The notes beneath the pieces were generated by a model. The model worked only from the letters and a program-made list of their open reading frames with translations. It made no database searches and had not been told where the DNA came from. From Rhizobium sp. Q54 (GTDB lineage: Bacteria > Pseudomonadota > Alphaproteobacteria > UBA2966 > CAIVPW01): a stretch of 64,000 bases of DNA. Made by a program: the position numbers and the translations under genes. Positions 3,911 through 63,563 of the stretch are shown here, one piece after another (the stretch's first letter is position 1; the number at the start of each line of letters is the position of its first letter). The stretch spans positions 7,728 to 71,727 of the forward strand of contig CAMDCA010000005.1 of the NCBI GenBank assembly GCA_945889645.1, in the 5' to 3' direction.

Positions 3911-5503
3911 CTAGTGGCGGAAGTGCCGGATGCCGGAGAACACCATGGCGAGGCCGCGCTCGTCGGCGGCCCGGATGACTTCGTCGTCGCGCATGGAGCC
4001 GCCCGGCTGCATGATCGCCGTCGCGCCCGCCTCAGCGGCGGCAATCAGTCCGTCGGCGAACGGGAAGAATGCATCGCTGGCGACCACCGAGCCGATCGTA
4101 TCGGATTTCGCCACGCCGGCCGCCTTCGCAGCATCATCGGCCTTGGCGCGGGCGATGCGCACGGAGTCGAGGCGGCTCATCTGTCCGGCGCCGATAGCGG
4201 TGGTGGCGCCGTTCTTGGCGAACACGATTGCGTTCGACTTGACGTGCTTGCACACGCGCATGCCGAACAGAAGATCGCGCAATTCGGCGTCGGTCGGCGC
4301 ACGCTTCGTCACGACCTTGAGCGCCGCGGCCTCAACCATCGCGGCGTCGCGTGTCTGCACCAGCAGTCCCCCCGCAAGGGAGCGCACCGTCAGCCCGAGC
4401 GTGCGCGCATCGGGCATGTGGCCGATGAGCAGCAGGCGGAGATTCTTCTTGCTCGCAAACGTCGCGAGGGCCGCCGCGTCGGCGTCGGGCGCGATCACCA
4501 CCTCGGTGAATATCTTGACGATCTCGGCTGCGGCGGCGCCGTCGAGCGGACGATTGGCGGCGACAATGCCGCCGAACGCGCTGACCGGGTCGCAGGCCAG
4601 CGCACGGCGATAGGCGTCCGTGAGGGTATCGCCGATGGCGACGCCGCACGGATTGGCGTGCTTGATGATCGCCACCGCCGGGCCGTCGAACTCGGCCGCC
4701 AGCTCGATGGCCGCGTCGGCGTCGCCGAGATTGTTGTAGGACAACTCCTTGCCCTGCACCTGGCGGGCGCTGGCGACGCCGGGGCGCGGATCGGCGCTGC
4801 GATACAGCGCGCCGATCTGGTGCGGGTTCTCGCCATAGCGCAACGACAGTGTGCGCTGGCCAACCATGACGATGCGCTCGGGCAGAGAATCGCCAGGGGT
4901 GCCGGGCGCCTGCTGCTGGGCGAACCAAGCGGCGATCGCGGCGTCGTAGGCCGCCGTGCGGGCGAACGCCTTGGCGGCCAGCCGGCGGCGCAGGTCGGGC
5001 GAAGTGGCGCCGGCGTTGGCGTCCATCTCGCGTGCGACCTCGGCCAAGTCCGCGGCATCGACAACGACCGTGACGTAGGCGTGATTCTTCGCGGACGAAC
5101 GAATCATCGCCGGGCCGCCGATGTCGATCTGCTCGATGCATTCGGCGAAGGGAGCGCCCGCTGCGACGGTCTGCTCGAACGGATAGAGGTTCACCACCAC
5201 CAGATCGATTGGCGCGATCCCGTGCTTCTGCATGGCGTGCACATGCTCGGGCTCATCGCGCAGGCCAAGGATGCCGCCGTGCACCTTCGGATGCAGCGTC
5301 TTCACGCGCCCGCCGAGCATTTCCGGGAAGCCGGTGAAGTCCGACACCTCGCGCACCGGGAGACCCGCGGCCGCGATCGCCTTGGCCGTCCCGCCGGTGG
5401 AGAGGACTTCGACCTTGTGCTTGGCAAGAACGCGCGCAAATTCGACCAGCCCGGTCTTGTCGGAAACCGAAACCAGCGCACGGCGGATGGGATGATTGTT
5501 CAT
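3911..5503 (-). CDS. purH: Bifunctional AICAR formyltransferase / IMP cyclohydrolase
   Basis: Start [18 protein letters not shown]; MGS-like and AICARFT domains conserved throughout. The longer 5611 start is rejected because it would overlap the riboswitch. Confidence 0.9.
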
Positions 5504-5519: not shown

Positions 5520-5640
5520 AGCTTCCGGCGGAGAAGCGTTAGATCGGGATCGAAATCCCGATGCCCAGGCGAACGGCCGACACTGCCCGTGCTTCCCGAT
5601 GGTGTGTCCATCCGATGTCGCCAGTCACGCGAACACCGGC
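5520..5640 (-). promoter_or_regulatory. ZTP (pfl-motif) riboswitch in the purH 5' leader
   Basis: The reverse-strand RNA reads ...CGCGUGACUGGCGACAUCGGAUGGACACACCAUCGGGAAGCACGGG...GUCGGCCGUUCGCCUGGGCAUCGGGAUUUCGAUCCCGAU.... It carries the hallmark UGACUGGCG 5' element and the CCG..CGCCUGGGCA 3' pseudoknot element of ZTP riboswitches. A perfect 8-bp hairpin follows as a putative expression platform, about 40 nt upstream of the purH ATG. Confidence 0.6.
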
Positions 5641-59631: not shown

Positions 59632-60588
59632 ATGCCACTGCGTGTCGCCATCCAAATGGACCCGATTGAGTCCATCGACATCGGGGCCGACTCGACGTTC
59701 GTGCTCGGTCTGGAGGCGCAGGCGCGCGGCCACAGCCTGCTGCACTACCACCCGCGCAGCCTCGTGCTGTCCGAACGCAAGGTATCGGCGCGCGCGCGTC
59801 CGCTGGCCTTGCGCAACGAGCGCGGCAACCACTTCACCCTCGGTGCGCCGTCGATCGTGGACTTGAGCCACATGGACGTCGTGCTGATGCGGCAGGATCC
59901 GCCGTTCGACATGGCGTACATCACGGCGACGCACATTCTCGAGCACCTGCCGAAGAAGACGCTGGTGGTGAACGATCCGGTCAGCGTGCGCAACGCACCC
60001 GAGAAATTGTTTGTCACCCACTTCGATGGCGTCATGCCGCCGACGTTGATCACCTCCGACCGTGAACAGATCGCCGCGTTCCGTGCCACGCACCGTGACA
60101 TCATCGTCAAGCCGCTGTACGGCAACGGCGGCGCCGGCGTGTTCCACGTCACGCCGGACGACGAGAACCTCGGCGCGCTGATGGAGATGTTCACCAGCCT
60201 CTATCGCGAGCCGATCATGGTGCAGCGCTACATCCCCGAGGTGCGGGTCGGCGACAAGCGCATCATCCTGATCGACGGCGAACCGGCGGGCGCCATCCTG
60301 CGCGTCCCGAGGTCTGCCGAGGCGCGCTCCAATCTGCACGCCGGCGGCACCGCGCGCGCGACGACCCTCGACAAGCGCGAGCGCGAACTGTGCGCCATCA
60401 TCGGCCCGCGCCTGCGAGAGCTAGGTCTGGTGTTCGCCGGCATCGATGTGATCGGCGGGTTCCTGACCGAGATCAACGTCACCTCGCCCACCGGGCTGCA
60501 GGAAGTGAACCGCTTCGACGGCGTCCGCCTCGAAGCCCGCGTTTGGGATGCCATCGACCGCCGCCTGGCGGAGCGCCGCGCCGCCTAG
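59632..60588 (+). CDS. gshB: Glutathione synthetase
   Basis: ATP-grasp fold; N-terminal IAIQMDPIESI signature of GshB. Confidence 0.9.
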   Translation: MPLRVAIQMDPIESIDIGADSTFVLGLEAQARGHSLLHYHPRSLVLSERKVSARARPLALRNERGNHFTLGAPSIVDLSHMDVVLMRQDPPFDMAYITATHILEHLPKKTLVVNDPVSVRNAPEKLFVTHFDGVMPPTLITSDREQIAAFRATHRDIIVKPLYGNGGAGVFHVTPDDENLGALMEMFTSLYREPIMVQRYIPEVRVGDKRIILIDGEPAGAILRVPRSAEARSNLHAGGTARATTLDKRERELCAIIGPRLRELGLVFAGIDVIGGFLTEINVTSPTGLQEVNRFDGVRLEARVWDAIDRRLAERRAA

Positions 60589-60669
60589 GGGCGGGAAACG
60601 CCCGGCGCCACCGCTACCTGGGCGAGCAAATCGCGCGGGACAATCTCGCGTCTAGGTAGTATATTGGCC

Positions 60670-60801
60670 GTGCAGTGACCCTGCACGGACCGACCCCCAG
60701 CCCTCTGCCAGACTGGCGGTCCGTAGACCCCCAGTGCCGTGCTTCGGTGCGGCCTGAAACGCCCGCGTCCCGCTCGTCCGGCGGGGCGCGGGCATCCTTT
60801 T
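60670..60801 (+). ncRNA. Candidate small RNA with an intrinsic terminator (unclassified)
   Basis: A -10-like TAGTATATT lies at about 60657-60665. Downstream are three or four stem-loops, including a UUCG-type hairpin (GCCGUGC-UUCG-GUGCGGC), and two copies of a C-rich motif GACCCCCAG. A strong terminator (GCCCGCG...CGCGGGC + AUCCUUUU) sits at about 60761-60801. No ORF. Lies between the convergent gshB and histidine-kinase genes. Confidence 0.4.
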
Positions 60802-60970
60802 GAGGGTCCGGCGTCGGCCCTCAGTCGCGGGCGCGGTTCACCATCGGCAAATTGAACATCGGCGTGCCGAGCTTGCCCATCAACTGCGCCCACAGCAGTA
60901 GCCACGCTGCTTCGTTCGCCGGCGAGCCTCGCCAACGGCCGGCGCCCGCCAGAAGCGGGTCAAGGGACGT

Positions 60971-62344
60971 TCAGACCGCGCCGGGCAGAACGATGCGCGT
61001 GGTCAACCCGCCGCCGTCGCGGTCCTCGAACGTGATGTCGCCGCCGTGCCCGCGCGCCACTGAGCGCGCCACGGCGAGGCCCAGGCCCATGCCGCCGGTC
61101 TCGCGGCTGCGCGAACTTTCGATGCGATAGAACGGGGCGAACACGCGTTCGCGCAGTTCAGCCGGAATGCCGGGGCCGCGATCTTGAATCAGCACCAGGT
61201 GACCGTCGCCTTCGGGCGTCAGCGTCACCAGTGCCTCGCTACCGTAGCGCACCGAATTGTCGATCAGGTTGGCGAATGCGCGCCGCAGAGCCACCGGGCG
61301 GCCGTGCAGCACGGCGCGATCCGGGCCCTGGTAGCGCACGTTCTGTCCGGCATCGGCGTGATCGGCGCACAGACTCTGCAGCAGCGCGGCCAAGTCGAGA
61401 CGCGCGCGCGGCTCCTGCACGGCCTCGTCGCGCGCGAACGCCAAAGTCGACTCCAGCATCTGCTGCATTTCGTCCAGGTCGTTGACGGCCTTGGCGCGCT
61501 GCTCGTTGTCGTCGATGAACTCGGCGCGCAGCTTGAGACGGGTCAGCGCCGTGCGCAGGTCGTGCGAAATAGCCGCCATCATCATGGTGCGATCGTCGAC
61601 GTAACGGCGCAGGCGCTCCTGCATGCGATTAAAGGCGCGAATGGCCCGCCGGACCTCCGGGGAGCCATTCTCCGGCAGTGGCGGCGCATTGACGTCGGTG
61701 CCGAAGCGATCGGCCGCAAGCGCGAACTGGCCGACTGGCGCCGCAGTTCGGCGTACCAGCAGGAACGCGACCGACAGCACCAGGAACGCCAGCGCGCCCC
61801 ACAGCCAGCCGCGCACCCACGGATCGCCCTCGGCGGGCTCCGGCCGCGCGTCGAACAACAGCCAGCCGCCGGTGACGGCGACCGCGACCAAGATGCCATC
61901 GCCGTCCGGTCCGCGCGTCGGCCAGATGCGGAACGGCCGATCGGCGAGGGGCGCCAGGCGCGGAACGACCTCCGCCGTCAGTCCTTCCGGCGGCGGCGGT
62001 TGCAGCGGCGGCGGCTGCGGTCGCAGGCTGACGGTAAAGTAGCGCGTGCTGACAAGGCGCGGAACGTCGCGCCGGCGCGGAACAGGCGCCGACTCGTACG
62101 TCTCAACGACGCTGATGACGCGCTGCGAAATCGTTTCGGCCTGCAGGGCGATCCGGCCGAGCGTCCGGTCGTAAATGTAGGTGACGAGCGGAATCGAACC
62201 GAACACGGCCAGTCCGACCAGCACGATGAGCATGACGCGGCCGGCGAGGCTTTGCACCCACTCGCGCCAGCCGCCCGCGTCACGCGACGGCGCCGCCGGA
62301 GCGACCGGCTCGTGCCGCGCCGGCAACTGCGGCAGGTCGGTCAC
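60971..62344 (-). CDS. Sensor histidine kinase (two TM helices, HAMP, HisKA, HATPase_c)
   Basis: H-box AAISHDLRTAL, N-box LIDNSVRYG, and G-boxes DRGPGI / GGMGLGLAV. Confidence 0.85.
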   Translation of the reverse strand: MTDLPQLPARHEPVAPAAPSRDAGGWREWVQSLAGRVMLIVLVGLAVFGSIPLVTYIYDRTLGRIALQAETISQRVISVVETYESAPVPRRRDVPRLVSTRYFTVSLRPQPPPLQPPPPEGLTAEVVPRLAPLADRPFRIWPTRGPDGDGILVAVAVTGGWLLFDARPEPAEGDPWVRGWLWGALAFLVLSVAFLLVRRTAAPVGQFALAADRFGTDVNAPPLPENGSPEVRRAIRAFNRMQERLRRYVDDRTMMMAAISHDLRTALTRLKLRAEFIDDNEQRAKAVNDLDEMQQMLESTLAFARDEAVQEPRARLDLAALLQSLCADHADAGQNVRYQGPDRAVLHGRPVALRRAFANLIDNSVRYGSEALVTLTPEGDGHLVLIQDRGPGIPAELRERVFAPFYRIESSRSRETGGMGLGLAVARSVARGHGGDITFEDRDGGGLTTRIVLPGAV

Positions 62345-63266: not shown

Positions 63267-63563
63267 ATGAACCTCAAGACCCTCGCCCTTTCCGCCGCCC
63301 TGGTTACCGGCCTTGTTGCGCCCATGGCGCAGGCCATCATCGTGGTTCCGGCCGCCTATGCCACCGGGGTCGTGACCGCAGTCGACGCAGCCCGCGGCAC
63401 CGTCACCGTGGACGGCATCGCCTACACGGCGACCCCCACCCGGCTGAACGACGTCACCACCGGCAGCCAGATCGGCGTCGCCTACCTCACGGTCGGCGGC
63501 AAGCTGACGGCCATCGCGATTGAGCCGGCGGCGACCGAGGCCGGCGACGAGATGGCCGAGTAG
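63267..63563 (+). CDS. Small secreted protein (98 aa, Ala/Thr/Val-rich) divergent from the two-component operon
   Basis: Strong SD (GAAGGAGAAACCCC-ATG). Signal peptide MNLKTLALSAALVTGLVAPMAQA. A hairpin terminator follows. Confidence 0.55.
   Translation: MNLKTLALSAALVTGLVAPMAQAIIVVPAAYATGVVTAVDAARGTVTVDGIAYTATPTRLNDVTTGSQIGVAYLTVGGKLTAIAIEPAATEAGDEMAE

Follow-up and report, generated by a model that had tools for sequence, protein, structure and literature searches.

In enterobacteria, the type I 3′-end small RNAs (sRNAs), such as DapZ and MicL, are transcribed from a promoter of their own that lies close to a gene's end, and the terminator of the upstream mRNA serves them as well. The classification of the 3′-end sRNAs into types is reportedly that of Miyakoshi, Chao and Vogel. 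In Rhodobacter sphaeroides, SorX is an sRNA that originates in the 3′ UTR of the gene of an OmpR-type regulator. The cuckoo/CcsR sRNAs are defined by the anti-Shine-Dalgarno motif CCUCCUCCC residing in two hairpin loops, and the CIN1 group of these sRNAs adjoins a DUF1127 gene (PMC8034643).

We analysed an element in the gap between gshB and an EnvZ-like histidine kinase gene in a 64-kb window, which is the whole stretch of DNA under analysis. The stop codon of gshB is at 60588 (+), the kinase gene ends at 60971 (−) and the gap between them is 382 bp. The original prediction for this gap was a terminator-ended sRNA. This core reading is now backed by the conservation of the element, conserved promoter positions, compensatory base changes, a preference for the + strand, its non-coding nature, the absence of an Rfam match and the loss of flanking genes around it. 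The predicted sRNA is ∼130 nt long and spans 60670–60801 (+), with its 5′ end placed at 60670–60673 from the position of the promoter and its 3′ end in the U tail. The sequences compared point most probably to a new sRNA family that is specific to one uncultured alphaproteobacterial clade and is of a known kind.

In its layout, the element appears to most resemble the type I 3′-end sRNAs, with their own promoter and a terminator shared with the upstream gene. A promoter-like site closely follows the stop codon of the upstream gene, whose first downstream terminator is that of the sRNA. However, its promoter is intergenic and not inside a coding region, and the sequences are unrelated. Like SorX, the element is alphaproteobacterial, lies near an ompR-like gene and is possibly derived from a 3′ UTR. 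But the ompR/envZ-like operon here lies at a distance of one to two genes and is read from the other strand, and we observed no sequence or Rfam similarity between the two.

A likeness to the CcsR/cuckoo-type sRNAs (Rfam ar14; CcsR1–4 of Rhodobacter, NfeR1 of Sinorhizobium) had also been proposed. The element shares with them its alphaproteobacterial origin, the ∼100-nt size class, a terminator at its end, C-rich single-stranded stretches potentially able to base-pair with purine-rich ribosome-binding sites, and a location at the 3′ end of the gene upstream. However, every defining feature of this class that we tested was absent. The motif CCUCCUCCC has no exact copy in the window and no copy with one mismatch in the element, and the sole match in the element at ≤2 mismatches, CCGCGTCCC (60763–60771), is inside the paired stem of the terminator. 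The CcsR/cuckoo motif sits in two hairpin loops, whereas the conserved C-run of the element is a linker, and its loops are UGACC, the interior of the second stem-loop and UUCG. The CcsR/cuckoo RNAs often form a tandem cluster, whereas the element is single-copy. Finally, its neighbours are gshB and the pyrE-like, npdG-like and envZ/ompR-like genes, and there is no DUF1127 gene as in the CIN1 group. By analogy, the element may work like these RNAs, its C-rich parts pairing with ribosome-binding sites, but it is not a member of the group.

The original prediction could assign no named RNA family, and the cmscan against Rfam 15 agrees with it. We found nothing in the gap at the gathering score, only spurious matches at E ≤ 10 (Mnt IRES, 14 bits; the terminator part of P17, 10 bits), and no match to the element in the six homologous loci that were searched. 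The sole Rfam match in the window is a ZMP/ZTP riboswitch aptamer (RF01750) at 5556–5638 (−), with 52.5 bits (gathering score, 39). A literature search for an sRNA near gshB, or on the MAG (metagenome-assembled genome) accession, returned nothing.

Conservation of the element and its gene context

We scanned GTDB genomes and JGI metagenomes for GshB and obtained 160 loci, in all of which the protein was ≤73% identical to that of the window (Ferrovibrio, Stella, Dongia, Azospirillum and others). The downstream DNA of these 160 loci was not similar to the gap in blastn and nhmmer searches. Contigs bearing the element were reached through closer GshB proteins (76–84% identical) from a large protein database. 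By using blastn together with an exact core motif, we found the element in eight loci: the window, L162, L163, L164, L167, L170, L171 and L173. The seven loci other than the window are all metagenomic and represent six lineages besides that of the window; the alignment has eight sequences from about seven lineages. L162 is a MAG of the same species, labelled ‘Alphaproteobacteria bacterium’ (GCA_009694055.1) and having 94% identity over the gap. The DNA of the window itself recurs, at 100% identity, on a metagenome contig of ENA (L081).

A covariance model, R1, scored the predicted sRNA itself at 129 bits and gave no credible match in 167 other loci. Its best matches there, in L027 and L108, were rejected, as they are inside long open frames and do not have the invariant motifs. 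Viral contigs scanned for the invariant core gave no match either.

Conservation of this gap in relatives had been named as a check on the sRNA, and we observed a conserved block across the eight loci. The block is sharp and corresponds to 60608–60802 of the window. In a whole-gap alignment of four distinct lineages, the mean pairwise identity was 65% in the promoter block, 80% in the RNA body and 40% in the U tail, compared with 19% in the upstream flank and 21% in the downstream flank. With gaps counted as mismatches, the RNA body was more conserved than the four-fold degenerate sites of gshB in 20 of the 21 pairs (90% versus 66% for the window and L163; 98% versus 73% for L164 and L171). 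Conservation above these four-fold sites indicates purifying selection on this non-coding stretch. The distance from the upstream stop codon to the block ranges from ∼20 to 85 nt among the loci, and the sequence in between is not conserved.

The fullest gene order, found in L170, L171 and L173, is gshB (+), pyrE-like (+), the element (+), npdG-like (−), envZ-like (−) and ompR-like (−). The pyrE-like gene, for an orotate phosphoribosyltransferase, is directly 3′ of gshB in most of the relatives (3957–4571 in L164, 3152–3763 in L170 and the equivalent positions in others). It is missing after 60588 in the window as well as in L162 and L163, and there is no other copy within the 64-kb window. Accordingly, the gene upstream of the element is gshB in these three loci and the pyrE-like gene in the others. 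An intact npdG-like gene, of the F420-dependent NADP reductase family, is found in L163, L170, L171 and L173, whereas L167 has a truncated copy and L164 has lost it. In the window, only the gene's last ∼35–45 codons are retained, as a C-terminal relic at 60821–60952 (−). The relic matches the 3′ ends of the npdG-like genes of L163, L165 and L170 in blastn and the L163 protein in BLASTP (E = 2e-10), and in tblastn the segment 60839–60907 maps to residues 193–215 of the 220 residues of the npdG-like protein. The convergent gap, put at 380 bp, had been described as non-coding; this does not hold for its right part, which the relic occupies. It appears that the npdG-like gene is repeatedly decaying in the clade of the window.

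Two other features were observed in the window. A 5-bp hairpin, GGGCG-GGAAA-CGCCC (60589–60603, +), comes directly after the gshB stop codon; it has no U tail and is common only to the window and L162. An ORF of 98 aa (63267–63563, +) is oriented divergently from the ompR-like gene; public contigs have it annotated as a gene, and it has no Pfam or NCBIfam family.

In the eight loci that have it, the element is kept whether the npdG-like gene is intact, truncated, reduced to a relic or absent. Several independent deletions on both sides have left the element in place, which argues that it is functional itself and is not tied to one neighbour. The loci L165, L166 and L168 do not have the element, and their pyrE-like and npdG-like genes abut with a 10-nt gap or overlap by 4 nt. 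A neighbour-joining tree of GshB, which is a rough tree, places these three loci within the clade that has the element, and this suggests that the absence is a secondary loss. As it is missing from these loci inside the clade, the element is dispensable there.

Structure, strand and coding potential

The consensus structure was obtained by RNAalifold from an RNA-only alignment of the eight sequences and consists of five helices with 38 pairs. A fold of ∼130 nt into several stem-loops had been predicted, and 60670–60801 indeed folds into four hairpins with z = −4.2; the 186-nt stretch of the original prediction (60640–60825) gave z = −4.6. The element, counted from its promoter, spans 60637–60801. 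A second hairpin at 60803–60823 (+), GAGGGTCCGGCGTCGGCCCTC, lies within the coordinates of the original prediction but is no part of the element. It is seen in the fold but is not conserved, and aligns only with the same-species L162.

The first stem-loop, SL1 (60670–60686, +), has the stem GUGCAG/CUGCAC and the loop UGACC, in which ACC is invariant. Its pair U71–A85 covaries with C–G (CG in four sequences, UA in three and UG in one). SL2 (60687–60722, +) has the outer stem GGACCG/CGGUCC, in which two to three pairs changed on both sides, and a C/U-rich interior, CCCCCAGCCCUCUGCCAGACUGG, in which the first copy of the C-rich motif GACCCCCAG lies. Its inner helix is unsupported, with no covariation and two disruptions. 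In L162, an 8-nt tandem duplication in SL2 has produced a third GACCCCC copy (L162 ∼4063–4075, equivalent to 60692–60699 of the window), and this C-rich stretch seems prone to slippage. A single-stranded linker, GUAGACCCC (60723–60731, +), follows SL2. Both the consensus fold and five of the six individual folds leave it unpaired; the exception is L167, whose minimum-energy fold differs.

SL3 (60732–60756, +), CAG-U-GCCGUGC [UUCG] GUGCGGC-CUG, has nine pairs with 100% of the cells paired and one pair changed on both sides. The UUCG cap that had been predicted is present at 60743–60746. However, it is specific to the species of the window, and the relatives carry CACAA or ACUCUCUC in its place.

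The element ends in an intrinsic terminator at 60761–60801 (+), with a stem at 60761–60793, a 5-nt loop and the tail AUCCUUUU; the terminator scan reported this stem followed by ATCCTTTT. An intrinsic terminator was thus predicted correctly, but its GC-rich stem has 14 bp rather than the 7 bp claimed. Three of its pairs changed on both sides, and U-rich tails are present in all the relatives. The terminator scan found the same hairpin in L163, and shorter stems of 5–6 pairs at the same place in L170 and L167. In L167, the terminator hairpin's 3′ half and T tail also occur a second time, in tandem (4167–4192), ∼45 nt after the first. The terminator is the first one after gshB in the window and after pyrE in the relatives, and therefore it probably also ends the upstream mRNA.

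On the consensus structure, 98.7% of the cells form standard pairs, compared with 33–44% when the partners were slid by 1–3 columns. Seven pairs changed on both sides, whereas the slid controls gave 0–1, and seven were reached by only 1–3 of 500 shuffles. Covariation had been named as a further check, and among the eight sequences such compensatory changes, at least one pair per helix, were found in four of the five helices (1, 2, 4 and 5), namely SL1, the outer stem of SL2, SL3 and the terminator. The alignment is small, with eight sequences from about seven lineages, and several of these changes may be single inherited events. We consider the support from covariation for a conserved structure to be good but not overwhelming.

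The same pairs also indicate the strand. The counts are 26 for G·U cells and one for C·A cells, and therefore the structure works on the + strand and not on the complement. The T tail and the promoter likewise lie on the + strand. An RNA from the minus strand was rejected on this count and on the lack of a U tail on that strand (GUUUCAGG). The indels between the loci are 8 nt in the same-species L162 and otherwise 1, 2 or 4 nt. They are not multiples of three and break every listed short ORF, so that the element is non-coding. We also rejected a riboswitch or 5′ leader, as in every locus the genes that come next past the terminator are read from the other strand, and a repeat or mobile element, as the element is single-copy and neither R1 nor blastn of the gap finds a second copy in the window.

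Promoter block and alternative origins of the RNA

A consensus scan of the region 60300–61300 found one promoter-like and one terminator-like site, both on the + strand and correctly ordered. The promoter-like site consists of the −35-like hexamer GGGACA (60637–60642, +) and the −10-like hexamer TATATT (60660–60665, +), both of which were located by the promoter scan and by conservation. The latter bears out the −10-like sequence of the original prediction; it lies 17 nt after GGGACA, and 0.0 such sites are expected in shuffles. In the eight sequences, the −35 element occurs as GGGACA, AAGACA or CTGACA (the last in most of the relatives) with GACA invariant in all eight loci, the spacer is fixed at 17 nt with zero indels, and the −10 element occurs as TATATT, TAGTGT, TAGCTT, TAAATT or TAGGTT with T1, A2 and T6 invariant and positions 3–5 free. 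The sequence turns variable right after the −10. An invariant GACA, a fixed spacer and a TAnnnT pattern are the trace left by sigma-70 promoters, and variability after the −10 is expected for the discriminator and start region. The consensus sequences of EcfG (GGAAC..CGTT), RpoH and RpoN, compared by eye, did not fit the promoter block.

The threshold of the promoter scan was reached only in the window and, at the equivalent position, in L167. No promoter was called in L163 and L170, where the −10 matches three of six positions. Upstream of the −35, the motif GCTACyTnnGCGAGCA (60613–60628, +) is nearly invariant in the eight loci, and it represents either a site bound by a regulator or, in an alternative RNA hairpin, the 5′ arm. 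Together with the weakness of the −10 in most of the relatives, this conserved motif suggests that the promoter needs a regulator, that is, it would be activator-dependent. The promoter block is conserved beyond the needs of sigma-70, and its spacer is unusually conserved. It also contains an imperfect inverted repeat, GCTACCTGGGCG/CGCGTCTAGGTAGTA, within 60611–60661 (+), which is present in all the relatives and could represent regulator sites or an RNA hairpin.

This promoter block is also where another reading departs from that of a stand-alone sRNA gene. The RNA could be longer (∼190 nt, ∼60611–60801) and cut from the mRNA of gshB, or of pyrE in the relatives, as a type II 3′-UTR-derived sRNA, in which case the ‘promoter’ block would be a 5′ hairpin having arms at 60611–60623 and 60647–60661 and a 24-nt loop. 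RNAalifold on the extended alignment does predict this 12-bp helix; 94.8% of its cells pair, against 24–48% with slid partners, and ∼20 of these are G·U cells, which fit a + strand RNA and would be mismatches in DNA. The unusual conservation of the supposed spacer speaks for the same reading, and so does the situation in the window, L163, L167 and L170, where the upstream stop codon is not followed by a terminator before the element begins. However, the helix has no covariation signal, with shuffles matching the observed values in 356–411 of 500 trials. A hairpin also leaves unexplained why GACA is invariant 17 nt before TAnnnT, and why T6, which is outside the helix, is invariant. Moreover, the upstream gene differs by lineage, and the stretch between its stop codon and the block is variable in both length and sequence. 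We regard processing of a longer RNA as rather unlikely. Nevertheless, because of the missing terminator ahead of the element, the description of the element as a gshB 3′ UTR may also be true, and both routes, the own promoter and the processing of the upstream mRNA, could operate.

The element could instead be nothing more than a structured 3′ UTR and terminator of convergent genes, which stabilises or ends the gshB/pyrE transcript, and perhaps also serves the npdG-envZ-ompR transcript on the other strand, without any function in trans. Its place between convergent genes, its terminator being the sole one found after gshB and the nearly palindromic stem, which matches R1 on the − strand too (21 bits), are in accordance with this. 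But termination does not need ∼90 nt of additional sequence having invariant single-stranded stretches and the covarying SL1–SL3, the − strand does not have a U tail, and the G·U cells favour the + strand by 26 to 1. The element also survives where the downstream gene is gone (L164 and the window). Being absent from L165, L166 and L168, where both the genes are intact, and kept in L164 and the window, it is not required for termination. A role confined to termination therefore appears improbable to us. A non-functional element, be it the decaying remnants of the pyrE or npdG-like genes, a gene for a small protein, a repeat or a mobile element, is hardly credible. Genes have been lost nearby, a part of the gap is a gene relic, and short ORFs of 42–47 aa overlap the element. 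However, in the relatives keeping both genes, the element is between them and outside both coding regions, and it is conserved above synonymous sites. The frame-breaking indels between close relatives contradict a small protein, and the single copy, with no other found by R1 in the window or in the 167 other loci, contradicts a repeat. With moderate confidence, we favour the reading as a stand-alone sRNA gene with its own promoter and terminator, whose product would act in trans by base-pairing, as judged from its sequence features.

Putative mode of action and significance

According to this reading as a stand-alone sRNA gene, the sigma-70-type promoter (60637–60642 and 60660–60665), presumably dependent on a regulator, would start transcription at about 60670–60673, and the 14-bp intrinsic terminator would end it at about 60797–60801. 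The product would be a non-coding RNA of ∼130 nt made of SL1–SL3 and the terminator hairpin. Conservation coincides with predicted single-strandedness in the SL1 loop (nnACC), the C/U-rich interior of SL2 (CCCUCUGCC) and the linker GACCCC(C) before SL3.

Two copies of the C-rich motif GACCCCCAG had been proposed to act as seed regions. The 64-kb window does contain exactly two copies of the motif, at 60692 and 60726; chance would give about 0.5 copies in 64 kb, and 10% of shuffles had two or more. However, only the second copy is conserved. In the relatives, the first copy reads CCCCAG, CCCAG, AUCCAG, CUCAG or UCCGG, whereas CCCCCAGUGCCG is invariant in all eight loci. As only one of the copies is conserved, the claim of two seed regions is unsupported as stated. 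In the second copy, CAG pairs with the CUG that closes SL3, and the free part is GACCCC (60726–60731) in the linker. The structure model makes this GACCCC the likeliest seed. It is envisaged that GACCCC and the SL2 interior would meet G-rich ribosome-binding-site sequences, and pairing near these sites would change the translation or the stability of the mRNAs. The complements of the two candidate seeds were not enriched in the 64-kb window and none was at a plausible start codon, but this stretch is too little to judge.

We consider it somewhat better than an even chance that the element represents an undescribed, clade-confined sRNA family, which has a regulator-dependent promoter, possibly under the neighbouring EnvZ/OmpR-like system, acts with a C-rich seed on G-rich ribosome-binding sites and was kept through independent deletions on its flanks. 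This would provide a well-delimited candidate sRNA family, with an alignment, a structure and a covariance model, for a lineage having neither a cultured member nor described riboregulators. It also illustrates that comparative genomics on metagenome contigs alone can tell a non-coding gene from the debris of gene decay within one gap. The understanding of sRNAs is unchanged by this element; its value is in the annotation and as a start for target prediction in the MAGs of this clade.
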